This document shows, piece after piece, positions 5,397 to 41,211 of a DNA stretch of 64,000 nt. The stretch is from NCBI GenBank assembly GCA_045577735.1, contig JAZNIY010000013.1:26702-90701 (forward strand), given 5' to 3'. The notes beneath the pieces are model-generated. The model was not told the DNA's origin. It did not search any database and worked only from the letters and a program-made list of their open reading frames with translations. The position numbers and the translations under genes are program-made. This DNA is from Candidatus Stercoripulliclostridium sp. GTDB taxonomy: Bacteria > Bacillota > Clostridia > Christensenellales > DTU072. The first letter of the stretch is position 1. Each line of letters opens with the position of its first letter.

Positions 5397-5437
5397 TGCT
5401 AAAATAGTTGCACAAAGGGAAAAGTGTTCCCTATTTT
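5397..5437 (+). promoter_or_regulatory. Candidate promoter region for the giant-gene array (weak call)
   Basis: Extended -10 TGcTAAAAT at 5397-5405 with no good -35. An alternative is TTGCAC (5408-5413)-18 nt-TATTTT (5432-5437). No consensus promoter is visible elsewhere in the 395-bp upstream region. Confidence 0.3.
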
Positions 5438-5485
5438 CCTACGCGTGCGTGGGCACAAATAAAATATTATATAACGGAAAGTGTA

Positions 5486-26335: not shown

Positions 26336-29300
26336 ATGATGAGAGTACAAGTAAAAAGAATAAGTAAACCCACGTTATTTATAGTAATGCTAGTAGCATT
26401 AACGCTTATTTGCGGATTGTTGTTTACTTCTATACAATTAAACAAAGACTTGATTGCAAGCGCTGCAACAAATATGAGCGTGCCTACCGATCCACAAAGC
26501 AATCATGCTACGTCCATGTCATATTATAAAGGAATAGAGACAAATGCTAGTACAAACTTTTTACAAGATACTGTTGATACAACGTTGACAGCTGGCACAA
26601 CTAAAACCATAACTTCTGACTTTTCTACAGCGGATGATACAGCGGCAGGGCACTTTTCAAATAATGGCTCAACTTGGTCAAGGAATATGGCTTATGATAA
26701 TACGGTTGGTTCAACGACAATCAATACTATGCTATTCTTTTATACTTTTAGGTTGGATGAAGATTTATATGAAAACATAATAAATGGTATGGTTAGCATA
26801 AGTGTTAGTGGTAGTTTCCAAGCTGGAACCACCTATGGTTCTGGTTGTGGCGACTGGTTTTCTGGTTTATATGTTGGCGTTGGCTATGCTAGTAGCGATG
26901 AGAACTCAGTATATTTACACGATTTTGTTCAAATTAGTGCGGTAACGAGTGGCTTTGGCGATCAAGTTTCTAATGCAACCTATCCAACATCCGATACGGC
27001 ACCTGCCATTAGTTCTCAAACTCTAAATAATAACTCAAATATAAGCAATTCTTATGGAAAGTATTTAAGAATAGGCTTGTTTGGTAGAGTATGGAACTGG
27101 GAAGATAGGAATATGACGGTTGCCATTAATAGTTTGAGTGTTACTATAACGGAACCAGAGGCATCCATGACGGTACCAGGCGATAATAATAGTGCCGTTG
27201 AGCCCTGGTATGCTAGTGATATGGCTGGTGGAAACACGGCAAATCCCGCAAGTGGAGTATTTGGTTATCATCAACAACCGAGCAATTTGATTCAAACAAT
27301 CGATACGCTGGATTATTCGGCCAGTAACATAGGTGCGGATTTCTATCGTTATAGTGACAACCAAACGGCGCAGGACAAATTTACAAACGTAGATACAACA
27401 GCAATAGATAATATTACCGGTTCGAATGTAGCTGGAAGATTCTACAACTCCGATGGTTGGTCTTTTGCTGGTGGAAACCAACTTTATCAAGTTGGTTTTA
27501 TGTACACATATAAACTAACAAACGACGTATATAATGCAATCATAGCAGGGAATGTTTCTATATCGTTGGGAGCAACGGCAAAATGGGGTGTTCTTTCGGG
27601 AGATGGTGACGTTGACTCTTGGCTATACGTTGGTATAGGATATTCTCCAAACGATAATTCTGCTGTTTCATATGAAGGATTTAGGCAAATAACGAGAGCG
27701 CAAGGAACGAAGTATGATCAATCTTCAGGTGGATCTGCTTCAACACAGAGCACTGCTAATAGTATTAGTAATGTAACTTTAACTGCAACAAACCCAAATG
27801 ATTACAATAAATACTTGCGTATTTGTATGTGGTTTGAAGCTTGGCCAGGTTCTGGTGGTGGCACTGCACAAATTACAGATGTAAGAATGAACCTTACAAT
27901 GTCAGAAAAAATACCAGTAGATACAACGGTACCATCTTATACAAACAATATGACAAAACCATCAGGAATTACCGTTCCTGGAACGTTTTATAGTAGTGCA
28001 GAATCTCGTAATTTCCACAAACAAGATTCAATGTACACCATATCTAATAGCTCAACCAGTCCCAAGTATTCATTAGTGGCAAGTGGGACGAGTTCTCAGT
28101 ATTTTCAAACAACCAATTATAATATAGTTCAGAACAATTGGGGAACAGATGGTATTTCATCGGGGCTTATTTTTGCAGGTGTTAGTTCGCTTAATATGGA
28201 AAATTCTACTAGTACTAGCAATATATATAAGGCTCGTTTAGAAGTTGGTGAGTATGCTTTGTATGGTATGTTCTATTCCTTAAGAGTGTCGGAAAACGTA
28301 TATAATGCACTACTAGCTGGACAAATTGCTATTGATTTTGAGCCAACTAGCTCGTATAGTGGCGCAAGTGCAACGGCAAGAACGTGGGGCTATATTGGAC
28401 TGGGTTACGCAGCAAGTGAAGATGCAGTTAAAACGGGAAATGGTTTTATTGAAACAAAAGGCTATTTGTCTGGTGCAAGAGGACATTTGAAAGGGACTTC
28501 CGATTATAGTACTAATGGCTCAGCAGCCAATAGGCTATCAGATTTTGTTTTTACAAAAAACGGAGTAGTTACTCAAAATTACAACGGAAATGCAAGCAAT
28601 GGAAATGATAAATACCTTCGTTTTGGTCTTTGGGGATATTCTACGGCTGGTAGCACTAGTGGCTCTCAACACGATTTTACTTTGTCGGAAGTTTATTTTA
28701 ACATAACGATTAAAGCTGTAAACAAGGATGAAAGTGGTCCTATATTTAATATAGAGTCAGGGGATATTGTCTCCACCAACAATGCGGTTACGATTTCCGA
28801 CAATCCGGGCGTTGACTATTACTTATTAAATGGAAATAGAATAGAAGTTGCAAAAATATCTAACACTTCGTTTTCAACATCTACAACGATTACTTTGCCA
28901 AAGCAAGGAAATTATACTCTTTCAGCAGTAGATCTTTGGGGATATTCTAGTATAACCATTAGTTTTACCTATTTCTATTCCACCGTTTACGCTCAAGCAA
29001 ATACGGATGGCACGCAAGGTGACTATAGCGGTGGAGGCGTAGTGTTTGGTAAAGACTACACCAACCTAAGCAGTTACAAATCGCAACAGATTAGTCATAG
29101 TGGTAACTATACTATGCAATACAATCTTTGGGCACACCCCAACGACGGCTATTATTTTGCTGGCTTTACTATAAATGGCTACTCTAATATTAATTTGAAT
29201 TTGATCACCCAAAGCATTAGTACGGCAGGTACGTACTCTGGTACCAATGGTAGTTACTCAACTATTAATGGTGATACTAGGGAATATAAGTTCACTTGGA

Positions 29301-32300
29301 ATGCCTATACCAACGTCATTATTCCTGCCGATGGTAAATTCTATATAACGGCTCACTTTAAGAGCATTCCCACCACTAATAATAGTGCTACCTATGATGG
29401 TATGGCAAAAAACGTTACAATAGGTGACGTTTCCAACGCACCCGGTGTTGGAACTATGAGTAAACTTGCTGTTTCTTATACCGATTCAGCATCTAATACA
29501 ACGACGTCATCACCTATTAATGCGGGAACCTATGTTGCGACATCAACCATTACGTGGAATGGCAACGTTGTTGGTGTAAAGACGGAAAATCTTACCATTG
29601 CTCAAAGGGAAACCACGGCTACTTATACTTTGACAGGTACTGCCCGTAATTATAACGGAAGTAATGATTTCTCCGGTTACGTTTCCTATGCTCTTTCCAA
29701 TCTTGTTTATGGTGATAACGTAGGGCTAGACGTTGTCGCTACAACGGCTGATGCCAACGTTGGTGCAAACAAAGCGTTAAGCATTAGTGCAACGCTTAAT
29801 GGGACCAGTAGTGCAAATTATACTCTTACCAACCCCACGGATAACACTAAGACCTTTACTATCAACACGGCTCCCGTAGAAGTAGTATTCGAGGTGGCGA
29901 ATAAGCCCTACGACGGCAACGCTACGGCATCCGTTACGGTTGGTAGCATTACGGGTTTGATTGGTACAGAAAGCATTCTTTACAATGACCTTAGTGCAAC
30001 CTATGCCGACAAGTATGCAGGGGACAACAAGAAGGTAACCCTAACTAACCCCGTAGCAACGGCTGGAGAGGGTACTAGTCTTGCAAACTACGACATTACT
30101 ACTAATGCCGATAGTTTATATGCAACGATTAGTAAAATAGAGTTAACTATAGATTATCTCCTTACAACCTCTAAGGTATATGACGGCAACGTTACTGCAA
30201 GCGTATCTGACGTTCAAGCAAGCGGTTATATAGGTGACGATAATACTAGACTATCAATTAGCGTTACTGCAACCTATGACGATAGCAATGCTTCTATAAA
30301 CAGAATAATTAGTATTGTCTTTGCAGTATCTGGTGCCGAAAGTATTAACTATTGGACCGAAGACCCCGAAGACGTAAGTGGTATAATCGAAAAACGTTAT
30401 CTTACCATAACGGCTGATGACAAAACTAAGGTATATGGTGAAGCAACTCCCGCATCGTCCTATAGCGTTAGCGCAACCAACGGTGACAATGACGGCACCT
30501 TCGTAACGGCAGACGATGAAAGTGCTTCCAATATAACTATCACCATACCGAGCGTTACTAACGCCGGCAACTATACCATTTCTGCAACGGTAGAAAACAA
30601 CAATGAAAACTACTACTTGTCTGCTGTGGATGGTAGCTACACCATTACAAAGCGCCCTGTTACCGTAACACTAAAGGAACAAGGTGGCGTATACGGTACT
30701 CCCGACCTCGGTGTTGACCAAGGAGCTTACGAAGTTTCTGCAAGCGGTGGTTATGCCTATCTTGGCGACGATTTGGGTATTAGTATCTCTAAAGCAGGGG
30801 ATATGGAAGTAGGCGCACACGCTCTAAGCGCAACCTCTTCCAACACCAACCACGAAGTAAACTTCGTAATCGAAAACAACTTTGTTATCACCAAACGCGA
30901 CCTTACTATCACCTTAGGTGCACAAGGCTCGGTATATGGTGAAGCAATAACCCTTTCAAACACAGTATTCACCACGACGGGACTTGTTAGTGGCGACAGC
31001 GTAGAAGTCATAATTTCCAAGGCAGACGGCACGCAAAAGGGCGAATATGCTCTTAGTGGCGTATTAAACACCGAAAGCGTAAGTTATGCTCACGTTGTTA
31101 AGAACTACAATTACACCATCGTTCCCGGTATCTATACCATTTCCAGAAGGGCAATAACCATTATTCTTGCTCCTCAAGGTTCTGTTTACGGCATAACTCC
31201 CGTAGTAAACCAAGGCGTTGACTACTTCAGCCTAGATACCACCGATGGAAAATTCGACCTTGCTAGCGGTGACGCCAAAGAGGATCTTAACGTTACTATT
31301 ACCAAGGCAGACGGCATAAACGCAGGAGAATATGAACTAACCTTTACTTGGAATAACGACAATTACGAAATAAGTGGTGCTAGTGGCATCTATGCTATTA
31401 CCAAGGCAACCCTAGACGTAACCTACGTTAGTGAAACTATCACCTATGGTGGCACTCCCGGTTACGCAGTAACCTACGCCGGATTCAAGTATACCGATAA
31501 CGAAGACGCTGTTACTACAAAGGCAACGCTAGATACTGCTAACCTTGCATACACCGGAAGCAATATTACTGCAAACGGAGAAGGATATCAAATTACTCCT
31601 AAGGGAGCAGAAGCTCTCAACTACGACTTTAACTATATTGCCGGCACGCTCACTGTTTTGAAGAAGAGCTTGTCCGTTGCTTACATCGAGGAAATCACCT
31701 ATGGTCAAAGCCCTGTAACCAGCATAACCGCAAGTGAATTTACCGTTACCGGACTAATTGGTGAAGAGGGCGCTGGCGTACTAACCTTAACTGCAAATTT
31801 GCCCACTAGCGCAGGCACGCACACCATTACAAGCGATAACCTCACCTTCCAAGCAACCAACTATGAAGTAACCGAAGTAAGTGGTTTACTAACGATAAAC
31901 AAGGCTCAACTAGAAGTTATAATAGGGGCACCTAGCACCGTTGTTCACTATGGTGACAGCATTACCTTGAACGTAACCTACGGCACCACCGGTAAGAACT
32001 TTGTAAATGGCGAAAACGCCGACACGGCTCTCACCCAAAAGGTTGTTGTAGATTTTGCTTCTATCACCAACGAAAAGGGATACGTAAGCGCAAATGAAAG
32101 TGGCTATGACCTTGCTACACTCATTAGCCAAGAGGCAACGGCAGACAATTATGAAATAATCCATACTGCTCAAATCCTTTACGTCTACAAGAAAGAATTG
32201 ACTTTGACCTATCAAGGTGAAAGCAAAGTATACGATGCATTAATCCCCACTCCTTCCAAGGATAAAGTAGTGGTAAGTGGTCTTGTTGACGGAGAAAGCC

Positions 32301-35300
32301 TAGAATATCTTGGCGAAAGCGAAGGATTCGACTACAACTTGGCTGTTAATGCTCCCAAGGCGCAAGTAGGGGAATATCTAGTATACGCGACCTACGTTTA
32401 CGGCGGCGGTAGAGATGCTCTTAACAACTATGACATCAAGTTTGTTCGTGACTACTACGACATCACGCACGCCACCCTTACTGCCACCTACGTTTCCGAG
32501 TCCATCGTATTCGGTGCTACTCCCACAGGCGCTGTTGTATACTCCGGCTTCAAGGGCTCCGATAACGAAGACGTTGTCATTACCAAGGCAACCGTTTCAT
32601 TTGAGAGCATAGATAACGTTACCATTCTCGGTGAAAACAGTTACGTAAACGTTAAAGAGGGGGGATACGCTCTTGCTCCCGAGGGCGCAAGCGCAGTAAA
32701 CTATGTCTTCAATTACGTTGAGGGTACTCTAACCGTTACTAAGAGAGAGGCCTCTCTCGTACTTGTAGACCAAACTTCAGTTTACGGCATAGCCCCCGTT
32801 GTTGGACAAGGTACGGAATACTATGAATTAACCGGACTACTTGAGGGCGACAGCCTAACCTCTCTAACCATTACCAAGGAAGAGGGCATAACGGTAGGAA
32901 GCTACGTACTTGACGCTGTCGTTGTGGCTCCCAACTATGAAGTTGCCGTTACCAAGGCAACCTATACCATAACCCAAGCAACCTTGAACGTTACTATCAG
33001 CTTTAATAGGGCATCCGTCCTTGATATCGACGTTGCATCTCTAACCACCGGCGACTTCACCATCGAATATGTCGGCTGGCAATATACGGATGACGAATCC
33101 TTGTTGGATACCCCCGTTTCCGTGGACCTAGATGCTATTATCTCTACTGCAACCGAAGCTGGCGAATATACCATTTTGTATATCGTAGGTAACGATGATC
33201 AATATATCTTCAACTACGTAAGCGTTGGCACAATCGTTGTTGTTGCTTCCGAAAAAGACGTTGATATTAGCGGTCTATCCTTCACCAGTAAATCTCTTCC
33301 CTATAACGGACAAGAGCAATACCTCGAAGTTGTTTGGAACGATCAACCCGAAGAAGTTGACGTTGAAATTTCCTACACCTATAGTAAACCTTTCCACAAG
33401 GACGTTGACGTATATAGTGTAATTGCAAGCTTTAGAGTTAAGACCGAGGGCTACAAGGACAATATCCCCTCCATGGAAGCATCTCTTACCATTACGGCTC
33501 TTGACGTATCACTCACCCTTGCTCCTCAAGGTTCAGTATACGGCGAAGCAGTAGAAGTAAAGCAAGGTGACGAATACTACACCGTAAGTGGTACCCTTAT
33601 TGAAGGTGACGATCTTGGCGTAGTTATCACCAAGAGCGACGTTATGAATGCAAATCATGGCGAATATGACCTTGATGCAACCATTTCCAATACCAACTAT
33701 AACCTTGTTTCCGTAACCACGAACGTTTATACCATTTCTAAGGTAAACGTAACCGTAAAACTAAGAAATCAAGTTGGCGGATATGGTAAGACGGCTCAAA
33801 TAGCACAAGGGGAATACGATATCGTTGCGGGCGCACTCGTTGACGAAGGCGATATGGTTATCACTTTGAGCGTTGAAACTGCTACCTTGTACGAAGTAGG
33901 CGAAAGCTATGCTATTACTGCAGAAATAGTACCCAACGAATGGTACGTATTTGACGTTATCGATGCAGAATACACCGTTGTTGCAATGGCAATCCAAATA
34001 ACCTTGAACAACGTAATTGCAACCTATGGCGATGACGTAGATGCTACCACTACCTATACCCTCACAAGTGGTACTCTAGCAGACGAAGGCGATGACCTCG
34101 GCCTAGTCTTCAGCATCACTCAAGCCGACAAATACGTTGTTGGTGGCGACTATAGCATTTCCGCTACCGCTTCTAACGACAACTACGTGGTTGAAGTAAT
34201 AGGTGCAAAATACGTTGTAGAAGCCAAGTATATCGAAATAAAAGTTGCCGACCAAAACTCCACTTATGGTGAAGAGTACGTTATCAAGAATGACTTTGCA
34301 CTCGTTGAAGGCTTCAGCTTGGAATATGACGACGAGAAAGAAGATCTGGGCGTAATCGTAACCGTAAACAGCTCTTCTTTGAATGCCGGTACCCACGTTC
34401 TTAGCGCAACAACCTCAACCACAAACTACAACGTTAAGGTAATTAACGGTGCCTACGTTATTGCTAAGGCAACAACCGTATTCTATACGGAAAAGCTACA
34501 AAAAGAATATACCTATACCGGTAACGCAATTAACTTTAAGACCGATACCTCGTACGTATATACCAACAGACCCAATAATCAATCAGGCATTAAGCTTCCC
34601 ACCGTTAGCGTAATCAACGCAGGTCACTATACCGTAACCTTCTCCATTAACGAGAGCACCAACTACGCTTCTGCTAGCGTTGACGTAAATATCGTAGTTC
34701 TTAAGGCAAATCCCGTTGTTAATATGTCCGTTCTTCTAAACAAGACCTACGTTTATAACGGTGTAGAGCAATATATTACTGCATCCAAGGAAGATTTGCT
34801 AGTCAAAGCAGATTTTGATGAAGTAACCCTATCTTGGTCGGGTGAAGTATTCAAAGACGTTCCCGAAACGGGTAACAAACTCGTAGAGCTAACCCTTTCC
34901 GAAACCACGAACTACTTCCCGGCAACCTTTACTCAAACTGTTCCTATCAACAAGGCTAGATATGACTTCACCGGACTAGATTATGCTTTCGCTGGTCTAT
35001 CTAAAGAGTACGACGGCAAAGAATGCTCTGTTCAAGTAGTAAATCTACCTGCAGGTATCACCGTTGCGTATTCATATAAAGATACCATCCAAGAAGCACC
35101 ATTCCTCTTCAAGAATGCAGGTGACTATATCGTTAAAGCAATATATTCCTATGACGAAGTTAACTACGAACGTCCCACCGAATTGATAGAAACAGCATAC
35201 GTTCAAATTGAGCGTATAGATATCACCGTTGAGGTTGTTGATCAACACGGTTACTACGGCGATGCTCCCGAATTCGATCCCAATGGTATTAATGTAATAG

Positions 35301-36613
35301 CAGGAACCTTCGTTGAGGGCGATGAAATTGACCTCAGCATACAACTTGAACCCAAAGACAGCTATCCAATTGGTGTTTATAAGCTTGTCGCTAACACTAT
35401 GGCAAGTGGTAACTACAACGTAACCATTGCAAGTGGTAGCTACACCATCAATCCTCGTCCCATAACCGTTACGATTAATAACGAACAAGCTCAATACGGC
35501 GATGAAGAAAAGCCCTATAGCTTCAAAATAACGGAAGGCACGCTCATTGGTGAAGACAAACTCAAATCCACCCTCGTTCGTGAAACGGGCAAGACCCCCG
35601 GCGAATATGCTATTTCCGGTAGCGTTGTTAACCCCAACTATATCGTTAAAGTAATTCCCGGCGTATACAAGATTGTTCCTCGCCTAATAACCGTAGAAGT
35701 ATTTAACCAAGAGGGTACTTCTGCAAAACAACTCAACAAGAGAGCATACAAGACCTTCGGTAAGATATTGAAGGGCGATAACTTGAACATCCAAGTTGTT
35801 GGTGAAATTGGAAGCACTCCCGGCGAATATCCCTTGAGCGCAACCTATACCGCAAATCCCAACTACGAAGTTGTTATCAAGGGAGGTGTCTTCATTATGA
35901 GAAAGGTTGCAGAAATCAGCGTAGATAACCCCATCGTATACAAACTCTACGACGGCGTTCCTTACGTATTTGACGTATTCGTATCAAGTGGAGCAGAACC
36001 TGTATTCAGTATTGACGGCATCTTCGTTGAAAACTCCTTCACCGAAGTTGGCGTATACAACCTCTCCATTAATGCCGACGTCAAGGGCGAGTACGCTTCT
36101 CCCGATCCTTATCGCATCACCTTCGAAATTCGTCCCACTGTGCTCGAAACCGAAAATGATGGCGTTGTGGTTAAAGTTACCAAGGTCGACGGCTTCGGCG
36201 CAGAAGAAAGACTAGAAATAGAGAAAGATCCTTCCGTTGTTCTTTCCGGCGAAGACTTCTCTTCCAAGATTGATACGGCTCTTACCATTTACGTTGTTCA
36301 AGGAGAAAACAGAGTACCTCTCCAAGAATATATGCAAGGTAGAGAAGCCCACATTAAGATTAAGCTAAATGACCAACTAACCGAGATAGGTGCAGAAACT
36401 TGGTTCGTAGATAGTGACAGCAACGTCCTATACGAAGCACCCACTCCCGATGAAGAAGGATTTGTAGAAGTAACTCTTGCCGACAGCAATCACATCCTCT
36501 TCGTAACTCAAAGAAGCGAAGCAACTCCCATATTGGTTGTGTCCGGTGGTATGCTTATCATCTTCCTGGCAATGGGAATGTTCTTCCTCTTCCGTAAGAA
36601 GTTCATTAACTAA
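26336..36613 (+). CDS. Giant surface protein 3 (3425 aa): signal anchor, three tandem copies of an uncharacterised ~250-aa head module, Ig-like domains, ~25 or more MBG(YGX)-like repeats, C-terminal TM plus basic tail
   Basis: AGGAGA RBS 8 nt upstream of ATGATG. N-terminal TM LFIVMLVALTLICGLLF. The head triplication is described in the findings. The repeat motif recurs throughout: (K/S)VYG(E/I/T)..P, GL(V/I).GD, G.Y.L, NY....G.YTI(T/S)K(R/A). The C-terminus is ATPILVVSGGMLIIFLAMGMFFLFRKKFIN. Confidence 0.85.
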   Translation: MMRVQVKRISKPTLFIVMLVALTLICGLLFTSIQLNKDLIASAATNMSVPTDPQSNHATSMSYYKGIETNASTNFLQDTVDTTLTAGTTKTITSDFSTADDTAAGHFSNNGSTWSRNMAYDNTVGSTTINTMLFFYTFRLDEDLYENIINGMVSISVSGSFQAGTTYGSGCGDWFSGLYVGVGYASSDENSVYLHDFVQISAVTSGFGDQVSNATYPTSDTAPAISSQTLNNNSNISNSYGKYLRIGLFGRVWNWEDRNMTVAINSLSVTITEPEASMTVPGDNNSAVEPWYASDMAGGNTANPASGVFGYHQQPSNLIQTIDTLDYSASNIGADFYRYSDNQTAQDKFTNVDTTAIDNITGSNVAGRFYNSDGWSFAGGNQLYQVGFMYTYKLTNDVYNAIIAGNVSISLGATAKWGVLSGDGDVDSWLYVGIGYSPNDNSAVSYEGFRQITRAQGTKYDQSSGGSASTQSTANSISNVTLTATNPNDYNKYLRICMWFEAWPGSGGGTAQITDVRMNLTMSEKIPVDTTVPSYTNNMTKPSGITVPGTFYSSAESRNFHKQDSMYTISNSSTSPKYSLVASGTSSQYFQTTNYNIVQNNWGTDGISSGLIFAGVSSLNMENSTSTSNIYKARLEVGEYALYGMFYSLRVSENVYNALLAGQIAIDFEPTSSYSGASATARTWGYIGLGYAASEDAVKTGNGFIETKGYLSGARGHLKGTSDYSTNGSAANRLSDFVFTKNGVVTQNYNGNASNGNDKYLRFGLWGYSTAGSTSGSQHDFTLSEVYFNITIKAVNKDESGPIFNIESGDIVSTNNAVTISDNPGVDYYLLNGNRIEVAKISNTSFSTSTTITLPKQGNYTLSAVDLWGYSSITISFTYFYSTVYAQANTDGTQGDYSGGGVVFGKDYTNLSSYKSQQISHSGNYTMQYNLWAHPNDGYYFAGFTINGYSNINLNLITQSISTAGTYSGTNGSYSTINGDTREYKFTWNAYTNVIIPADGKFYITAHFKSIPTTNNSATYDGMAKNVTIGDVSNAPGVGTMSKLAVSYTDSASNTTTSSPINAGTYVATSTITWNGNVVGVKTENLTIAQRETTATYTLTGTARNYNGSNDFSGYVSYALSNLVYGDNVGLDVVATTADANVGANKALSISATLNGTSSANYTLTNPTDNTKTFTINTAPVEVVFEVANKPYDGNATASVTVGSITGLIGTESILYNDLSATYADKYAGDNKKVTLTNPVATAGEGTSLANYDITTNADSLYATISKIELTIDYLLTTSKVYDGNVTASVSDVQASGYIGDDNTRLSISVTATYDDSNASINRIISIVFAVSGAESINYWTEDPEDVSGIIEKRYLTITADDKTKVYGEATPASSYSVSATNGDNDGTFVTADDESASNITITIPSVTNAGNYTISATVENNNENYYLSAVDGSYTITKRPVTVTLKEQGGVYGTPDLGVDQGAYEVSASGGYAYLGDDLGISISKAGDMEVGAHALSATSSNTNHEVNFVIENNFVITKRDLTITLGAQGSVYGEAITLSNTVFTTTGLVSGDSVEVIISKADGTQKGEYALSGVLNTESVSYAHVVKNYNYTIVPGIYTISRRAITIILAPQGSVYGITPVVNQGVDYFSLDTTDGKFDLASGDAKEDLNVTITKADGINAGEYELTFTWNNDNYEISGASGIYAITKATLDVTYVSETITYGGTPGYAVTYAGFKYTDNEDAVTTKATLDTANLAYTGSNITANGEGYQITPKGAEALNYDFNYIAGTLTVLKKSLSVAYIEEITYGQSPVTSITASEFTVTGLIGEEGAGVLTLTANLPTSAGTHTITSDNLTFQATNYEVTEVSGLLTINKAQLEVIIGAPSTVVHYGDSITLNVTYGTTGKNFVNGENADTALTQKVVVDFASITNEKGYVSANESGYDLATLISQEATADNYEIIHTAQILYVYKKELTLTYQGESKVYDALIPTPSKDKVVVSGLVDGESLEYLGESEGFDYNLAVNAPKAQVGEYLVYATYVYGGGRDALNNYDIKFVRDYYDITHATLTATYVSESIVFGATPTGAVVYSGFKGSDNEDVVITKATVSFESIDNVTILGENSYVNVKEGGYALAPEGASAVNYVFNYVEGTLTVTKREASLVLVDQTSVYGIAPVVGQGTEYYELTGLLEGDSLTSLTITKEEGITVGSYVLDAVVVAPNYEVAVTKATYTITQATLNVTISFNRASVLDIDVASLTTGDFTIEYVGWQYTDDESLLDTPVSVDLDAIISTATEAGEYTILYIVGNDDQYIFNYVSVGTIVVVASEKDVDISGLSFTSKSLPYNGQEQYLEVVWNDQPEEVDVEISYTYSKPFHKDVDVYSVIASFRVKTEGYKDNIPSMEASLTITALDVSLTLAPQGSVYGEAVEVKQGDEYYTVSGTLIEGDDLGVVITKSDVMNANHGEYDLDATISNTNYNLVSVTTNVYTISKVNVTVKLRNQVGGYGKTAQIAQGEYDIVAGALVDEGDMVITLSVETATLYEVGESYAITAEIVPNEWYVFDVIDAEYTVVAMAIQITLNNVIATYGDDVDATTTYTLTSGTLADEGDDLGLVFSITQADKYVVGGDYSISATASNDNYVVEVIGAKYVVEAKYIEIKVADQNSTYGEEYVIKNDFALVEGFSLEYDDEKEDLGVIVTVNSSSLNAGTHVLSATTSTTNYNVKVINGAYVIAKATTVFYTEKLQKEYTYTGNAINFKTDTSYVYTNRPNNQSGIKLPTVSVINAGHYTVTFSINESTNYASASVDVNIVVLKANPVVNMSVLLNKTYVYNGVEQYITASKEDLLVKADFDEVTLSWSGEVFKDVPETGNKLVELTLSETTNYFPATFTQTVPINKARYDFTGLDYAFAGLSKEYDGKECSVQVVNLPAGITVAYSYKDTIQEAPFLFKNAGDYIVKAIYSYDEVNYERPTELIETAYVQIERIDITVEVVDQHGYYGDAPEFDPNGINVIAGTFVEGDEIDLSIQLEPKDSYPIGVYKLVANTMASGNYNVTIASGSYTINPRPITVTINNEQAQYGDEEKPYSFKITEGTLIGEDKLKSTLVRETGKTPGEYAISGSVVNPNYIVKVIPGVYKIVPRLITVEVFNQEGTSAKQLNKRAYKTFGKILKGDNLNIQVVGEIGSTPGEYPLSATYTANPNYEVVIKGGVFIMRKVAEISVDNPIVYKLYDGVPYVFDVFVSSGAEPVFSIDGIFVENSFTEVGVYNLSINADVKGEYASPDPYRITFEIRPTVLETENDGVVVKVTKVDGFGAEERLEIEKDPSVVLSGEDFSSKIDTALTIYVVQGENRVPLQEYMQGREAHIKIKLNDQLTEIGAETWFVDSDSNVLYEAPTPDEEGFVEVTLADSNHILFVTQRSEATPILVVSGGMLIIFLAMGMFFLFRKKFIN

Positions 36614-36635: not shown

Positions 36636-36669
36636 GCGTGCGTGCCTATGGCGCGCACGCACTTGTTTT
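36636..36669 (+). terminator. Intrinsic terminator closing the giant-gene array
   Basis: GCGTGCGTGC-ctatg-GCGCGCACGC (10-bp GC-rich stem with one G-U pair) followed by ACTTGTTTT, 23 nt after the stop of giant gene 3. Confidence 0.8.
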
Positions 36670-36687
36670 AAAAAAACCTAATTTAAA

Positions 36688-37368
36688 ATGATTATCCAAG
36701 GACTACAAAAATTAACCATACTCGATTTCCCGGGACAAGTAGCTTGCATAGTATTTACTGCAGGGTGCTCTTTCCGTTGTCCCTTTTGCCACAATGCAAC
36801 GCTTGTGAAAGGAGAGGGAGAGAATATAAGCGAAGAAGAGGTGCTGGCCTATCTTAAAAAACGCCAAGGAATTTTGGACGGAGTCGTCATAACCGGTGGT
36901 GAGCCAACCATTCAAAAGGACCTAAAAGAATTCATCAAAAAGATTAAGACACTAGGTTACAAGGTAAAACTTGACACCAACGGCTATCATCCCGAAAGGC
37001 TAAAAGAGCTTTTGGACGAGGGGCTTCTCGATTACGTTGCAATGGATATAAAAAACAGCAAAGAGAAGTATGCTTGTACCACTGGGCTACAAAATATAGA
37101 TATTACGCGCATTGAGCAAAGTGTGGAACTCATTAAAAATGGTAACGTACCTTACGAATTTCGCACTACCACAATGGCTGAGTATCATGAAACACAAGAC
37201 TTTGTGGCCATCGAAAAATGGGTAAGTGGCGCAAAAAAATTTTTTATACAATCTTTCAAGGATTCGGGCGATATCTTGTGTGGAAGCTTTACTCCACTAA
37301 ATGAGCAAAAAATGGAAGAATTTCAACAAATTTTGGCTGTTTCGGTGGGGGAAGTGAAAACTCGGTAG
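36688..37368 (+). CDS. nrdG: Anaerobic ribonucleoside-triphosphate reductase activating protein (radical SAM)
   Basis: CSFRCPFCHN (CxxxCxxC radical-SAM cluster) follows LTILDFPGQVACIVFTAGC. ITGGEP SAM-binding motif. Size and context next to nrdD fit. No obvious RBS or promoter of its own. Confidence 0.9.
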   Translation: MIIQGLQKLTILDFPGQVACIVFTAGCSFRCPFCHNATLVKGEGENISEEEVLAYLKKRQGILDGVVITGGEPTIQKDLKEFIKKIKTLGYKVKLDTNGYHPERLKELLDEGLLDYVAMDIKNSKEKYACTTGLQNIDITRIEQSVELIKNGNVPYEFRTTTMAEYHETQDFVAIEKWVSGAKKFFIQSFKDSGDILCGSFTPLNEQKMEEFQQILAVSVGEVKTR

Positions 37369-37376
37369 CCAGGGAT

Positions 37377-37394
37377 ACCACAATATTTTGTGGT
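37377..37394 (+). promoter_or_regulatory. NrdR box 1
   Basis: ACCACAATATTTTGTGGT has palindromic arms ACCACAA/TTGTGGT. It matches the published NrdR-box consensus acaCwAtATaTwGtgt at about 13 of 16 positions. Confidence 0.75.
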
Positions 37395-37420
37395 CAAAAA
37401 GGGGTTTTGGAAAAAAATAA

Positions 37421-37436
37421 CCACAATATCTTGTAA
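37421..37436 (+). promoter_or_regulatory. NrdR box 2 (weaker right arm)
   Basis: CCACAATATCTTGTAA. The left half is identical to box 1. Box starts are 43 bp apart, about 4 helical turns. Confidence 0.6.
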
Positions 37437-37444
37437 AAAACCTG

Positions 37445-37474
37445 TTGACAGAATGGCGAGTCGTGTAGTAGGAT
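37445..37474 (+). promoter_or_regulatory. Putative nrdD promoter
   Basis: TTGACA at 37445-37450, then 18 nt, then TAGGAT at 37469-37474 (4 of 6 for the -10). AGGAGG RBS at about 37499. Confidence 0.4.
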
Positions 37475-37510
37475 ATTACTGCACGATTTCATTTTTTTAG
37501 GAGGTAGTTT

Positions 37511-39874
37511 ATGTACCAAGTTGTCAATAGAGAAGGCAAAATAGTTGACTTTGATACTAACAAGATTATAGGCGCAATTTCCAAAGCCTTTGATTCATTA
37601 GATAAATATTATAATAGGAGCACCCTTGAGCTTTTGGCTCTTAGAGTTACTGCAGATTTTAACCCCAAGATTAAAGATGGTTTCATCTCCGTTGAAGACA
37701 TCCAAGACAGCGTAGAAACCATTCTTATTCAAGCCGGATATGCAGACGTTGCGAAGGCATATATCCTTTATCGTAAGCAACGTGAAAAAGCACGCAACAT
37801 TCAAGGTACCCTTTTGGATTACAAGAAGGTTATTGATGATTATCTAAGCGTAAGCGACTGGCGTGTTAAGGAAAACAGTACCGTTACCTACTCCGTAGGC
37901 GGACTCATTCTTTCCAACAGTGGCGCAATTACTGCTAACTATTGGCTAAGTGAAGTATATGATGAAGAAATTGCCAACGCACACCGTAAGGCAGACATTC
38001 ACATTCACGATATGAGTATGCTTACCGGATACTGCGCAGGCTGGTCACTAAAACAACTCATCAAAGAGGGACTCGGTGGTGTTACCGGCAAGATTACTTC
38101 TTCTCCCGCACGTCACCTTTCTACTCTATGTAACCAAATGGTTAACTTCCTCGGCATAATGCAAAACGAATGGGCCGGCGCACAAGCATTCAGCTCTTTC
38201 GACACCTATCTTGCTCCCTTTGTAAAGAAGGATAACCTTTCATATTATGAAGTAAAGAAGTGCATTCAAAGCTTCGTCTACGGCGTAAATATTCCCTCTC
38301 GTTGGGGAACTCAAGCACCATTTAGCAACATTACTCTAGACTGGGTTGTTCCAAACGACCTTGCAGAGCTTAACGCTATTGTTGGTGGCGAAGAGCAAGA
38401 CTTTAAATATAAAGATTGTAAGAAGGAAATGGATATGATTAACAAGGCCTTCATCGAAACCATGATTCATGGCGATGCTAACGGCCGTGGTTTCCAATAT
38501 CCCATTCCCACATACTCCATTACCGCAGACTTCGATTGGTCGGAAACCGAAAACAACAAACTTCTTTTCGAAATGACTGCAAAATACGGCACGCCTTACT
38601 TCAGTAACTATATTAACAGCGATATGGAACCAAGTGACGTTCGTTCAATGTGCTGTCGTTTGCGTCTTGACCTTCGCGAACTTCGCAAGAAGAGTGGTGG
38701 TTTCTTTGGCAGTGGCGAATCAACCGGTTCTATCGGTGTTGTAACCATCAATATGCCTAGACTTGCCTACATTGCAAAGGACGAAAAAGACTTCTACGTT
38801 CGTCTTGACAAGATGATGGATATCTCTGCAAGAAGCTTGAAGATTAAACGTGACGTTATCTCCAACTTACTGGAAAACGGACTATATCCCTACACAAAGC
38901 GTTATCTTGACAATCTTGATAATCACTTCTCGACTATCGGCTTGGTAGGTATGAACGAAGCTTGCCTAAATGCAAACTGGATTAGAGCAAACCTAACCGA
39001 AGAAAGAGCAAGAAAATTTGCTATCGAGGTACTAAACCATATGAGAGAAAGATTGTCCGACTACCAAGAAAAATACGGCGACCTTTACAACCTTGAAGCA
39101 ACCCCTGCAGAATCAACCTCTTTCCGTCTTGCAAAGCATGACGTTCAACGTTATCCCGGCATCATTACTGCCGCTAAGTCCAAAGATGACACCCCATACT
39201 ACACCAACAGCTCACACTTGCCCGTAGGATATACCGAAGACGTATTCACCGCTCTTGACCTACAAGACGAATTACACACCCTCTACACCTCCGGTACAGT
39301 ATTCCACGCATATCTTGGTGAGCGTCTACCCAACTGGCAAAGTGCAATGAACCTTGTAAGAAAGATTGCAGAAAACTATCGTCTTCCTTACTATTCAATG
39401 AGCCCTACTTACTCCATCTGTAAAGACCACGGCTATATTAGTGGTGAAGAATATACCTGCCCCATCTGTGGCGAAACCACCGAAGTTTACAGCCGTATCA
39501 CCGGTTACTACCGTCCCGTAAGAAACTGGAACGATGGCAAGAGCCAAGAATTCAAGGATAGAAAGGTATACAATATTTCCAAGTACAATACCCCCCACAG
39601 CCAAGTAGCAGGGGACGTTAAAACCGAGTGCGCTTCCCAAGTAGAAGAGGGCATCACCCTTTACACTACTGCAACTTGCCCTAACTGCAAAATGGTAAAG
39701 ATGCTCCTTGATAAGGCCGGAATTAAGTACGAAACCGTTGTTGCAGATGCATCTACCAAGGCAAGATTTGATGCTCACGAAATCAAGCAAGCCCCCACCC
39801 TTATGGTAAATGGTGCCAAGTACGAAAACGCAAGCAACATCAAGAAGTATATTGAAGATAATAGCGCACGCTAA
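37511..39874 (+). CDS. nrdD: Class III anaerobic ribonucleoside-triphosphate reductase with a fused C-terminal glutaredoxin/NrdH-like domain
   Basis: N-terminal ATP-cone (MYQVVNREGKIVDFDTNKIIGAISKAF). Zn-ribbon CKDHGY...CPICG. Glycyl-radical motif SRITGYYRPV, with the Gly codon at 39503-39505. A ~35-aa linker then leads to ITLYTTATCPNCKMVKMLLDKAGIKYETVV...QAPTLMVNG, a thioredoxin fold with CPNC at 39677-39688 and a cis-Pro-like APT. Confidence 0.9.
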   Translation: MYQVVNREGKIVDFDTNKIIGAISKAFDSLDKYYNRSTLELLALRVTADFNPKIKDGFISVEDIQDSVETILIQAGYADVAKAYILYRKQREKARNIQGTLLDYKKVIDDYLSVSDWRVKENSTVTYSVGGLILSNSGAITANYWLSEVYDEEIANAHRKADIHIHDMSMLTGYCAGWSLKQLIKEGLGGVTGKITSSPARHLSTLCNQMVNFLGIMQNEWAGAQAFSSFDTYLAPFVKKDNLSYYEVKKCIQSFVYGVNIPSRWGTQAPFSNITLDWVVPNDLAELNAIVGGEEQDFKYKDCKKEMDMINKAFIETMIHGDANGRGFQYPIPTYSITADFDWSETENNKLLFEMTAKYGTPYFSNYINSDMEPSDVRSMCCRLRLDLRELRKKSGGFFGSGESTGSIGVVTINMPRLAYIAKDEKDFYVRLDKMMDISARSLKIKRDVISNLLENGLYPYTKRYLDNLDNHFSTIGLVGMNEACLNANWIRANLTEERARKFAIEVLNHMRERLSDYQEKYGDLYNLEATPAESTSFRLAKHDVQRYPGIITAAKSKDDTPYYTNSSHLPVGYTEDVFTALDLQDELHTLYTSGTVFHAYLGERLPNWQSAMNLVRKIAENYRLPYYSMSPTYSICKDHGYISGEEYTCPICGETTEVYSRITGYYRPVRNWNDGKSQEFKDRKVYNISKYNTPHSQVAGDVKTECASQVEEGITLYTTATCPNCKMVKMLLDKAGIKYETVVADASTKARFDAHEIKQAPTLMVNGAKYENASNIKKYIEDNSAR

Positions 39875-39933
39875 GAGTTAAAAAACAAATGATATCGCTC
39901 CGCGTAAGCGGGGCGATTTTAAGGTAAAGAGAT

Positions 39934-40857
39934 ATGAATTACGATTACGATATTATAGTTATTGGTGCAGGTGCTAGTGGTATGACGTCTGCTCTTTATG
40001 CCCTTCGTGGTGGCAAGAACGTGCTCATCATAGAAAAAGAAACGGTGGGTGGACAAATCTCATTTTCGCCCAGAGTTGAAAATTTCCCCACCATCAAGGA
40101 AATAAGCGGACAAGACCTTAGCGACCGCTTATTTGACCAAATAATGGACCAGGGAGTGGCTTTTGAGCTCGAAACAGTAGAGAAAATTGAAAAGTTAGAA
40201 GAGAAGGGCTTTAAGGTTACCACCGACTACCATACCTATACTGCAAAAGCGGTTATTATTGCAGCGGGAGTAAAGCATCGTCATTTGGGCCTTCCTCGTG
40301 AGCAAGAATTTATTGGTAGGGGCGTTTATTATTGTGCTCTTTGTGACGGTGCATTCTATGAAAACCAAGAAGTAACCCTAATAGGGGACGGCAACTCTGC
40401 GCTCCAATATGCACTTTACCTTTCCAATATTTGTTCCAAAGTTACGGTTGTAACGCTATTTGATTACTTTGCAGGCGAGCCCATGCTTGTAAATCGCCTT
40501 AAAGAGCGCGCTAACGTAGAAATCATTATGGGCTATGCTTCCACCTCATTTTTAGGTGAAGACAAGTTTGAGGGAATAGCTTTCAAAGAAACCTATGGCG
40601 ACAAGACTATGGAAATTAGAAATAGTGCTGTATTCGTAGCAATAGGTCAAGTGCCCGATAATAAGAAATATGAAAATTTAGTAGAGCTCGATAAACAAGG
40701 CTTCATTGTAGCCGGTGAAGATACTTTTACCAAAACCGAAGGCATCTATGCCGCCGGCGACTGTCGTACCAAGAGCGTACGCCAACTCACCACAGCTGTA
40801 GGCGACGGAGCCAACGCGGCGATAGGGGCTTGTGCTTATATTGATCGCACCTTCTAA
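39934..40857 (+). CDS. Low-molecular-weight thioredoxin-reductase-like flavoprotein (CxxC present, NADPH HRRxxxR motif absent)
   Basis: FAD motif DIIVIGAGASGMTSA. Redox-active CALCDG at 40333-40344. Second dinucleotide motif GDGNSA. Where E. coli-type TrxB has HRRDxFRA, this protein has TLFDYFAG (40453-40476). C-terminal FAD motif GIYAAGDC. Confidence 0.8.
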   Translation: MNYDYDIIVIGAGASGMTSALYALRGGKNVLIIEKETVGGQISFSPRVENFPTIKEISGQDLSDRLFDQIMDQGVAFELETVEKIEKLEEKGFKVTTDYHTYTAKAVIIAAGVKHRHLGLPREQEFIGRGVYYCALCDGAFYENQEVTLIGDGNSALQYALYLSNICSKVTVVTLFDYFAGEPMLVNRLKERANVEIIMGYASTSFLGEDKFEGIAFKETYGDKTMEIRNSAVFVAIGQVPDNKKYENLVELDKQGFIVAGEDTFTKTEGIYAAGDCRTKSVRQLTTAVGDGANAAIGACAYIDRTF

Positions 40858-40885
40858 AAACACGTTATTTTAGCGAATAACTTCA

Positions 40886-40950
40886 CAAAACAAGAGCCTC
40901 CCTCGGTCGTTTACGAGTAGTAAAGTCCCGTCAGTAGGCTCTTTTGTTTT
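40886..40950 (+). terminator. Long structured hairpin plus U-tract after the trxB-like gene (member of an intergenic repeat family)
   Basis: The outer stem AAGAGCCT (40892-40899) pairs with AGGCTCTT (40936-40943). The apical stem-loop is TTTAC-gagta-GTAAA (40910-40924). TTTTGTTTT follows. Confidence 0.65.
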
Positions 40951-41185
40951 GCCTCGTTCTTCATCTAAACTAACGCGTTTTAAGAGGCACCACATATACC
41001 GACTACAATCCACCGCGCATTTTAGCGAACAACTTCACAAAAACCAAAGTCTACCGTGGTCTAAAACTGGTGCAAGTAAACTCAAACTGAATAATAAGGT
41101 TTTGGCGAATTGCATTGTGAAGGAAAAAGTTTCCCTTCACTTCGCACTTCATCCAAAAAACAAAGTCTATTAAAGGAATAAAATT

Positions 41186-41211
41186 AAAAAGAGGTATGCA
41201 AGTACCTCTTT
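41186..41211. terminator. Bidirectional intrinsic terminator (serves the minus-strand lipid kinase gene)
   Basis: AAAAA-GAGGTA-tgcaag-TACCTC-TTTTT, immediately downstream of the stop at 41212-41214. Confidence 0.75.

Follow-up and report, generated by a model that had tools for sequence, protein, structure and literature searches.

We analysed a locus for anaerobic ribonucleotide reduction in a 64,000-nucleotide stretch of DNA (the window) from Candidatus Stercoripulliclostridium sp. (contig JAZNIY010000013.1, positions 26,702 to 90,701). The locus encodes a class III ribonucleotide reductase (RNR), NrdD, whose polypeptide continues into a C-terminal glutaredoxin (Grx)-like domain, and next to it lies a gene for a flavoprotein disulfide reductase. 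We consider it probable, with a likelihood of roughly 70%, that the product is a redoxin-dependent (NrdD2-type) class III RNR with a built-in redoxin, which is recycled by the downstream flavoprotein. The fusion is widespread and occurs in at least 80 species from several families and two phyla. Our reading builds on the architecture, motifs and fold of the proteins, on their conservation and on gene linkage, all of which the analysis shows.

The three genes all lie on the forward strand. The first, nrdG (36688-37368), encodes the radical-S-adenosylmethionine (radical-SAM) activase of class III RNR, a protein of 226 aa with the CxxxCxxC motif at residues 27-34. It is followed by nrdD::grx (37511-39874), which encodes the 787-aa class III ribonucleoside-triphosphate reductase with the fused redoxin domain. 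The third gene (39934-40857), separated from the nrdD stop codon by 59 nt, encodes a TrxB-like FAD disulfide reductase of 307 aa with the motifs GAGASG (FAD), C134-A-L-C137, GDGNSA and TLFDYFAG. An earlier reading, made from the sequence alone, had named these three open reading frames, the ATP-cone, Zn ribbon and RITGYYRPV motif of NrdD, a CPNC motif at 39677-39688, the CALC motif of the flavoprotein and the 59-nt gap. We found all of these as claimed.

The NrdD core and its fused redoxin

The core of the protein is that of a class III RNR. Pfam NRDD (PF13597) matches residues 121-687 with 637 bits, and the NCBIfam model NF006126, 'ribonucleoside triphosphate reductase', matches residues 1-689 with 1124 bits (cutoff 548). 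A search of the PDB matched the entries 8p23, 4coi, 4u3e and 1h78. An ATP-cone, the allosteric on/off domain, occupies residues 3-92 (37517..37786, forward strand; Pfam PF03477, 73.4 bits). Towards the C-terminus, the Zn-ribbon ligands C637, H640, C650 and C653 (39419..39469, forward strand) are invariant or nearly so in homologue alignments. They are followed by the glycyl-radical motif RITGYYRPV at residues 662-670 (39494..39520, forward strand), in which R662, G665 and Y666 are invariant in homologues.

Active-site residues were read one by one from the HMMER alignment to Thermotoga maritima NrdD (4coi), whose chain numbering equals the UniProt numbering, as verified by counting to S328-C329-C330-R331. 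In this alignment S379-M380-C381-C382-R383 pairs with A327-S328-C329-C330-R331 of T. maritima, which places the finger loop M380-R383 at 38648..38659 on the forward strand. C382 is the putative thiyl-radical Cys; C381 corresponds to the extra Cys of thiol-dependent enzymes, and M380 to the Met of formate-type enzymes (motif classes per PMC9669993). The beta-A (bottom-face) cysteine, Cys175 (38033..38035, forward strand), pairs with T. maritima C125 and is invariant in the homologue alignment. Glu529 in the motif NLEATPAE (39095..39097, forward strand), the putative active-site proton donor, pairs with T. maritima E495 (context N-L-E-A-T-P versus N-I-E-Q-V-P), which is the residue that Burnim et al. 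scored as 'proton-donor glutamate' (PMC9669993). The formate-dependent Prevotella copri NrdD (8p23) has a Leu at this position.

We took the definitions of NrdD subtypes from PMC4493059 and PMC9669993. NrdD2 enzymes are defined by a third Cys and the Glu, and some of them retain the Met (PMC4493059, summarising Wei et al.). The window NrdD has both a third Cys beside the predicted thiyl-radical Cys and a Glu equivalent to E495 of T. maritima and E438 of Neisseria bacilliformis. The 'thioredoxin-only' subclades are marked by an SCCR loop with no finger-loop Met (PMC9669993); here M380 is present and the loop reads MCCR. By its sequence the window NrdD is an NrdD2 with Met, in the majority group for which either reductant is possible. 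Among 75 parsed species homologues the loop reads MCCRL in 74 and ICCRL in one, and NLEATPAE is present in all 75. The sequence-only reading had proposed to tell thiol-type from formate-type enzymes by these residues. The thiol-type residues C175, C381-C382 and E529 match C125, C329-C330 and E495 of T. maritima as that reading would predict, and the formate-type Met is kept beside the Cys pair and the Glu.

The polypeptide extends 100 aa past the end of the NRDD match, or about 122 aa past Gly665. Residues 714-787 (39650..39871, forward strand) form a glutaredoxin/NrdH-like thioredoxin-fold domain with CPNC at residues 723-726 and the cis-Pro motif QAPT. Pfam Glutaredoxin (PF00462) matches residues 715-768 with 36.3 bits (gathering cutoff 22.9, E 6.4e-9). 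When the domain was searched in isolation, the nearest PDB sequences were the glutaredoxin 2klx and the Corynebacterium NrdH-redoxins 1r7h and 4fiw; the NrdH alignments cover about 60 residues including the QAP cis-proline motif. A domain-only AlphaFold2 (AF2) model, built from 19 fused-domain sequences, had a mean predicted local distance difference test (pLDDT) score of 89.6 and the order beta-alpha-beta-alpha-beta-beta-alpha. In this model the CxxC is predicted to lie at the N-terminus of helix 1 and the cis-Pro before beta-3. Foldseek comparison of the model with the PDB returned thioredoxin-fold proteins only, among them the Grx domains of thioredoxin-glutathione reductase and of hybrid Prx5, Grx2, NrdH (4fiw, root mean square deviation (rmsd) 2.1 A) and the Cp9-like BC3987 (rmsd 1.8 A). 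The thioredoxin fold assigned to the extension in the sequence-only reading is borne out by this model, and the Pfam match lies in the same polypeptide as NrdD.

The only invariant columns across the aligned fused domains are the two CxxC cysteines and the cis-Pro. Classical glutaredoxins bind glutathione through the signature CPYC, TVP and GG-x-DD. This signature is absent from the domain, which reads CPNC, QAP and NGAKYEN. NrdH proteins carry a C-terminal WSGFRP motif. The NrdH signature is likewise absent from the domain, which has no WSGFRP-like motif and reads CPNC instead of the redox motif CVQC (C-[VMI]-Q-C; PMC3720550). The NCBIfam models for Grx, NrdH and YruB, whose cutoffs of 66-129 are set for stand-alone redoxins, score 20-30 bits; the best of these matches is to the YruB/Cp9 family at 29.6 bits, far under its cutoff. 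Taken together, the motifs and matches suggest that the domain is probably a Grx/NrdH/Cp9-like redoxin that does not depend on glutathione. The survey in PMC6187632 describes the NrdH class as reduced by thioredoxin reductase (TrxR), not by glutathione.

The redoxin domain is joined to the core by an acidic linker of about 26 aa (residues 688-713; 39572..39649, forward strand) with one Cys, C707, and a pLDDT below 30 in the full-length model. Homologues differ in how long this linker is and in its sequence; it has the look of a flexible tether. The number of linker cysteines varies as well: a pair is present in 24 of the 75 species, one in 16 and none in 35. The pairs are mostly C-x-C followed by Glu (CACE, CECE, CDCK and similar) in an otherwise hypervariable linker. 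Such a pair could serve as a metal site or, in the manner of the C-terminal tails of class I/II RNRs, as a mobile shuttle.

The fusion is not a product of assembly, frameshift or chance read-through. Genes for the identical protein of 787 aa lie on 13 independent contigs of ENA metagenome assemblies. We then scanned one genome per GTDB species; our species counts refer to the best 80 loci among the matches listed, and the number of species is therefore at least 80. The fusion was present at all 80 loci, with the match extending to query residue 777-787, and no stop codon or frameshift was seen in relatives. The 13 contigs with the identical protein and the 80 species loci together rule out the artefact that the sequence-only reading had named as a risk. 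A word-indexed search found more than 120 protein clusters with 76-97% identity, nearly all of 784-790 aa, and most of them carry a precomputed PF00462 or PF00085 match. Across clusters and species genomes together, length and architecture are kept at 71-97% identity. The nearest species-level genome matches for NrdD are merely 77% identical among the matches listed.

Carriers include Oscillospiraceae, Acutalibacteraceae, Butyricicoccaceae, Christensenellaceae and Lachnospiraceae, metagenome-assembled genomes (MAGs) labelled 'Bacilli', and MAGs of Lentisphaeria/Victivallaceae. Among cultured organisms we found it in Butyrivibrio sp. INlla16, Pseudobutyrivibrio sp. YE44, Ruminococcus turbiniformis and Clostridiales bacterium CCNA10, the last of which has a complete genome.

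Redoxin tails are also found further afield. Among representatives at 50% identity, about 16 of the best 150 NrdD clusters have a C-terminal CxxC redoxin tail, mainly with CPNC and also with CPKC, CPRC or CQNC. In two of them (P0162 and P0181) the match to the query ends at residues 704-732, and a different, apparently unrelated thioredoxin-like tail with CPKC follows. In two others (P0247 and P0257) a redoxin tail stands on an enzyme with a QCCR (NrdD3-like) finger loop. Every fused homologue that we looked at has a double-Cys finger loop, either MCCR or QCCR. Judging from these sequences, redoxin domains appear to have been joined to double-Cys NrdDs more than once, independently.

Other unusual architectures were seen among the NrdD proteins. 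A relative of 782 aa (P0157, 47% identity) is Asn-rich and of low complexity; it keeps the NrdD plus Grx-like layout and has neither Zn-ribbon cysteines, glycyl-radical motif nor CxxC. This NrdD may be non-catalytic or degenerate. In the representatives P0221 and P0255 the NrdG activase is fused to the NrdD C-terminus, with the radical-SAM CxxxCxxC in a tail of 227-267 aa; comparable NrdDG fusions are known from eukaryotes (PMC3019208). Many other representatives are lengthened by apparent inteins. A 950-aa protein (P0016) with an internal duplication of a segment of about 160 aa was set aside as an apparent assembly artefact.

The downstream flavoprotein and its linkage to nrdD

The flavoprotein matches Pfam Pyr_redox_2 with 134 bits, and its best PDB match is the TrxR of Methanosarcina mazei (4zn0, E 6.7e-60). 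It has the two-domain layout of FAD/pyridine-nucleotide disulfide oxidoreductases with a CxxC in the second domain, and its CALC (residues 134-137) aligns with the redox-active CA[TIV]C of TrxRs. By sequence it is clearly a homologue of the low-Mr TrxRs. Its score against the curated TrxB equivalog model TIGR01292 is 300.7, under the cutoff of 343.45, and homologues are labelled just 'FAD-dependent oxidoreductase' by NCBI. The earlier description of this protein as TrxB-like therefore stands as far as homology goes, but the protein is atypical, being under the TIGR01292 cutoff and having lost the HRRxxxR motif.

HRRxxxR is the motif for the NADPH 2'-phosphate. The sequence TLFDYFAG stands at the position of HRRD(H/E)L(K/R)A in 4zn0 and 4gcm and of HRRDTLRA in 7aaw, and the loss of HRR was seen in all three displayed alignments. 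The GxGxxA motif survives as GDGNSA. In Clostridia, NTRs have been recognised by GxGxxA together with HRRxxxR (PMC10880999), and on this sequence test the flavoprotein is a non-NTR. Because HRRxxxR is lost the flavoprotein is probably not NADPH-dependent, and the module would therefore need an external electron donor.

We counted the motifs at this position in 64 linked reductases and found HRRD in about 10, QNL(D/P/A)xxTGE in about 37 and TLFD(K/Y)FF(G/A) in about 16. Half of the TLFD-type orthologues have no second fingerprint glycine and read GDANTA, which may speak slightly for a donor that is not a pyridine nucleotide.

The reductase gene is closely tied to the fusion. It lies directly downstream of nrdD::grx at 63 of the 80 species loci, with an estimated median gap of 19 nt. 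Stop and start codons overlap in 18 cases, which implies translational coupling. The order nrdG - nrdD::grx - trxB-like is constant across four unrelated genomic contexts while the flanks change: giant surface proteins and diacylglycerol kinase in one, the his operon and catalase in another, a glycosyltransferase and ABC exporter in a third, and CNNM and MFS proteins in the fourth. A same-strand NrdG homologue flanks 51 of the 80 loci, mostly just upstream of nrdD::grx.

The linkage was also seen from the side of the reductase. The 120 closest homologues of the flavoprotein appear to share T(L/M)F(D/N); 64 were resolved by our automated parse, and the motif is present in each of the nine read by eye. 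In a reverse look-up, three TLFD-type homologues (59-65% identity), chosen for long contigs alone and each in yet another context, were all found downstream of an nrdD::grx gene, at a distance of 1-70 nt. From these sequences the TLFD subfamily looks dedicated to the nrdD::grx RNR. The pairing with a disulfide reductase, which the sequence-only reading had put forward from a single locus, is thus upheld by synteny and by the reverse look-up.

Proposed electron path and alternatives

The cognate activase for NrdD is encoded by the adjacent gene. NrdG matches NCBIfam TIGR02495 (NrdG2) with 222 bits against a cutoff of 131, and Pfam Radical_SAM and Fer4_12 match too. In the path that we propose, NrdG and S-adenosylmethionine would generate the glycyl radical on Gly665. 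The radical would pass from Gly665 to Cys382, which would abstract the 3'-H of the substrate. Cys175 and Cys381, together with the proton donor Glu529, would then supply two electrons and protons for reduction of the 2'-OH and end as a disulfide. These first three steps are proposed by homology to the work on N. bacilliformis and T. maritima, via PMC9669993 and PMC4390871. The tethered CPNC domain would re-reduce the Cys175/Cys381 disulfide by thiol-disulfide exchange, and the TrxB-like protein, through its FAD and CALC, would recycle the CPNC domain. The flavoprotein would most likely draw its electrons from NADH or reduced ferredoxin/flavodoxin, rather than NADPH.

We infer this electron path, its donor and the use of a redoxin rather than formate as physiological reductant; for the CPNC-domain and flavoprotein steps the grounds are the fusion itself, the synteny, and NrdB::Grx of Facklamia ignava as a precedent. 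In that protein, according to the account in PMC6187632, the Grx part was shown to reduce the RNR efficiently, and a thioredoxin-dependent NrdD is also on record (as cited in PMC4390871 and PMC9669993). The sequence-only reading had drawn all three genes as one electron-transfer chain. The part that pairs the Grx domain with the reductase is supported; NrdG is a radical activase and no link in the turnover chain, and the chain needs a donor from outside.

Several points weigh against the redoxin-dependent reading. A full-length AF2 model (pLDDT 55.7, predicted template modelling score 0.40, shallow alignment) is too poor to place the Grx domain relative to the active site. A GC-rich 10-bp hairpin followed by TTTT, read from the sequence at 39894..39920 on the forward strand, separates nrdD::grx from the reductase gene in the window. 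This hairpin fails the forward-strand criterion of a terminator scan and would at best terminate weakly or in part; there is no space for a second promoter between the two genes, and the sequence suggests that read-through co-transcription is likely. At 17 of the 80 species loci the reductase gene was not seen in the flank. These include Lachnospiraceae isolates and CCNA10, which have unrelated neighbours, and a few others are on short contigs; a reductase from another place in the genome can thus serve the fusion. Full-text literature searches returned no characterisation of any NrdD-Grx fusion, as the sequence-only reading had supposed.

The retention of Met380 in the MCCR loop is a further point of this kind. 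In E. coli NrdD the finger-loop Met participates in formate-dependent reduction, and many fermentative Clostridia make formate. Formate could then be the main reductant here, through NrdD1 chemistry of Met380 and Cys175, with the Grx domain and the reductase as a back-up when formate is scarce; we regard this formate-first or dual enzyme as unlikely. Met380 is kept in all but one of the parsed species homologues, and according to Burnim et al. MCCR enzymes hold the components for both routes and could use either reductant (PMC9669993). The MCCR plus Glu signature is also found in unfused relatives of about 50% identity, and thus the signature alone permits but does not prove the use of a redoxin. 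However, Glu529 and Cys381 are invariant, and a dedicated reductase gene that abuts or overlaps nrdD in most species implies substantial flux. Neither a gene for pyruvate formate-lyase nor another formate-related gene was found within the 64-kb window.

A quite unlikely alternative is that the Grx domain supplies no turnover electrons and keeps the Zn-ribbon and C-terminal cysteines reduced for glycyl-radical formation by NrdG. The domain is attached directly after the Zn-ribbon/glycyl-radical domain, and there is an earlier report of an activating role of thioredoxin for the class III RNR from E. coli (PMC4390871). However, such a maintenance role leaves the double-Cys loop, MCCR or QCCR, of every examined fused homologue unexplained, and a dedicated co-transcribed reductase is not obviously needed for repair. 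It is very improbable that the flavoprotein and Grx domain form an oxidative-stress module that scavenges oxidants near the enzyme, in the way that Clostridium pasteurianum Cp34, an NADH-dependent TrxR-like protein encoded beside Cp9 (PMC3720550), passes electrons with Cp9 to peroxiredoxin: the best NCBIfam match of the domain is to YruB/Cp9 and its fold matches the Cp9 relative BC3987, but no peroxiredoxin gene was found in the module at any inspected locus and the linkage is specific to nrdD.

Within the redoxin-dependent reading, the source of electrons is a separate matter, on which the reading is again exposed. TrxRs without HRR span NADH-dependent enzymes (DvTR3, the T. maritima thioredoxin reductase TmTR and TaTrxR) and NAD(P)H-independent ones (DvTRi, FFTR, DTR and the F420-dependent DFTR; PMC5627308), and the donor is therefore not readable from sequence. 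As a tentative idea, to which we give rather less than even odds, the TLFD-type flavoprotein may be an unrecognised NAD(P)H-independent, ferredoxin/flavodoxin-dependent disulfide reductase dedicated to ribonucleotide reduction. In these Clostridia of gut and rumen it would wire deoxyribonucleoside triphosphate synthesis directly to the low-potential ferredoxin pool via the tethered Grx, with the linker C-x-C as a shuttle where it is present.

Locus organisation and relation to known systems

The 142-nt spacer between nrdG and nrdD contains two NrdR-box-like palindromes, found by pattern search and assigned to no strand. The first, ACCACAATATTTTGTGGT, lies at 37377..37394. The second (37420..37435, ACCACAATATCTTGTA; given as ACCACAATATCTTGT at 37420 for the palindrome) starts 43 nt after the start of the first and lies directly 5' of the -35 hexamer. 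The NrdR-box pattern has 4 matches in the window where 0.81 are expected, and NrdR-like boxes are found 5' of nrdD::grx at 47 of the 80 species loci, often spaced by 31-32 nt. These candidate sites are assigned to NrdR by the consensus known from the literature; the nrdR gene itself was looked for and was not found within the 64 kb. Both sites lie 3' of nrdG and directly 5' of the best sigma-70-like promoter match in the region (37445..37474, forward strand; TTGACA, 18 nt spacer, TAGGAT), a consensus match only, at 10 of 12 positions. Thus nrdD::grx-trxB appears to be an NrdR-controlled unit of its own, in which the reductase gene is probably transcribed together with nrdD::grx from the NrdR-controlled promoter. 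No RNA element or riboswitch was found in the leader with Rfam at E <= 1.

The nrdG gene lies upstream of this NrdR-box/nrdD promoter; the preceding giant gene ends in a terminator, and nrdG follows directly on it. That terminator is a strong hairpin (11 bp, 9 of them GC) in the stretch 36636-36687; its end is 27 nt before the nrdG ATG, and between the hairpin and the ATG no recognisable promoter or Shine-Dalgarno sequence was found. On related contigs the nrdG start is called 51 nt further 5', giving a protein of 243 aa whose gene overlaps the terminator hairpin.

The window encodes SleB/YpeB, and the host is an uncultured spore-forming Clostridia bacterium. Three tandem giant genes (5408-14557, 14638-25410 and 26336-36613) encode repeat-rich putative surface proteins of 3049, 3590 and 3425 aa. 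In the third, a signal-like segment stands at the N-terminus and a membrane anchor at the C-terminus; on the related contig L001 the annotation of the counterpart includes MBG_2 and YDG domains. Downstream of the reductase gene, at 40858-41211, there is a hairpin-containing repeat of about 125-150 nt with partial copies at 40867-40890 and 41019-41042; L001 has three copies of this repeat (within 9348-10723). Contigs L001-L004, otherwise about 99% identical, carry an insert of about 1 kb that is missing from the window; its two genes encode a protein of 176 aa and an HTH_3 regulator.

Class III RNRs that depend on thiols are already known, as are RNR-Grx fusions and TrxRs without HRR. The thioredoxin-dependent NrdD2 enzymes of N. 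bacilliformis and T. maritima (4coi/4u3e) have in common with the window NrdD the double-Cys loop, the beta-A Cys and the Glu, and also the proposed Cys-Cys disulfide that is re-reduced by a thioredoxin-fold protein. Their redoxin is separate and their loop is SCCR with no Met. In contrast, the window NrdD has a C-terminal fused redoxin, MCCR, an ATP-cone and an adjacent gene for a reductase of non-NADPH type.

The small, Grx-like, glutathione-independent redoxin that is dedicated to RNR and recycled by a reductase is a feature shared with the NrdH-redoxin/TrxR route of class Ib enzymes and with the NrdH-like route of Methanosarcina barkeri NrdD3. However, NrdH is free-standing, whereas the domain in the window is fused and has neither CVQC nor WSGFRP. 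The M. barkeri system is reportedly recycled by a ferredoxin:disulfide reductase, which is not a flavoprotein. Cp34/Cp9 of C. pasteurianum and other HRR-less low-Mr TrxRs offer a likeness on the reductase side, namely a CxxC TrxR-like flavoprotein that has no HRRxxxR, is encoded beside a Grx-like partner and occurs in an anaerobe. The partner of the window reductase is a domain of NrdD, whereas that of the Cp34/Cp9 type is a free protein. The reductase motif in the window, TLFD(Y/K)F(A/F)G with GD(G/A)N(S/T)A, is not the TQ/NGK of TRi and could be matched to no characterised enzyme.

A glutaredoxin-fold domain on an RNR subunit is also found in Grx::ATP-cone::NrdB of F. ignava; as PMC6187632 describes it, that domain is N-terminal, uses glutathione and belongs to an aerobic class I enzyme, where it sits on the subunit that generates the radical. 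Table S1 of the same 2018 RefSeq survey lists one Glutaredoxin:NrdD, from Lachnospiraceae bacterium TWA4 and of subclass NrdDd, as a single sequence whose domain order the listing does not describe and which receives no further comment there (PMC6187632). The sequence-only reading's claim that no NrdD-Grx fusion had been characterised stands, but one such fusion had already been catalogued. What is new is the spread of the fusion, its MCCR-type host enzyme, its usual companion reductase gene and the two motif groups of reductases without the NADPH site.

The fusion bears on the question of the in vivo reductant of the large MCCR group of class III RNRs. To our knowledge, redoxins have been tested to date with one SCCR enzyme and one NrdD3 enzyme only. 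The MCCR group makes up 83% of double-Cys class III enzymes (PMC9669993). A natural redoxin fusion on an MCCR NrdD is strong genetic evidence for thiol dependence in vivo. It also provides a ready-made, stoichiometrically defined system for the study of mechanism, in which the reductant question is directly testable. Finally, the two HRR-less TrxR-like subfamilies, TLFD and QNLx, gain a known physiological partner, which bears on the redox wiring of abundant gut and rumen anaerobes.

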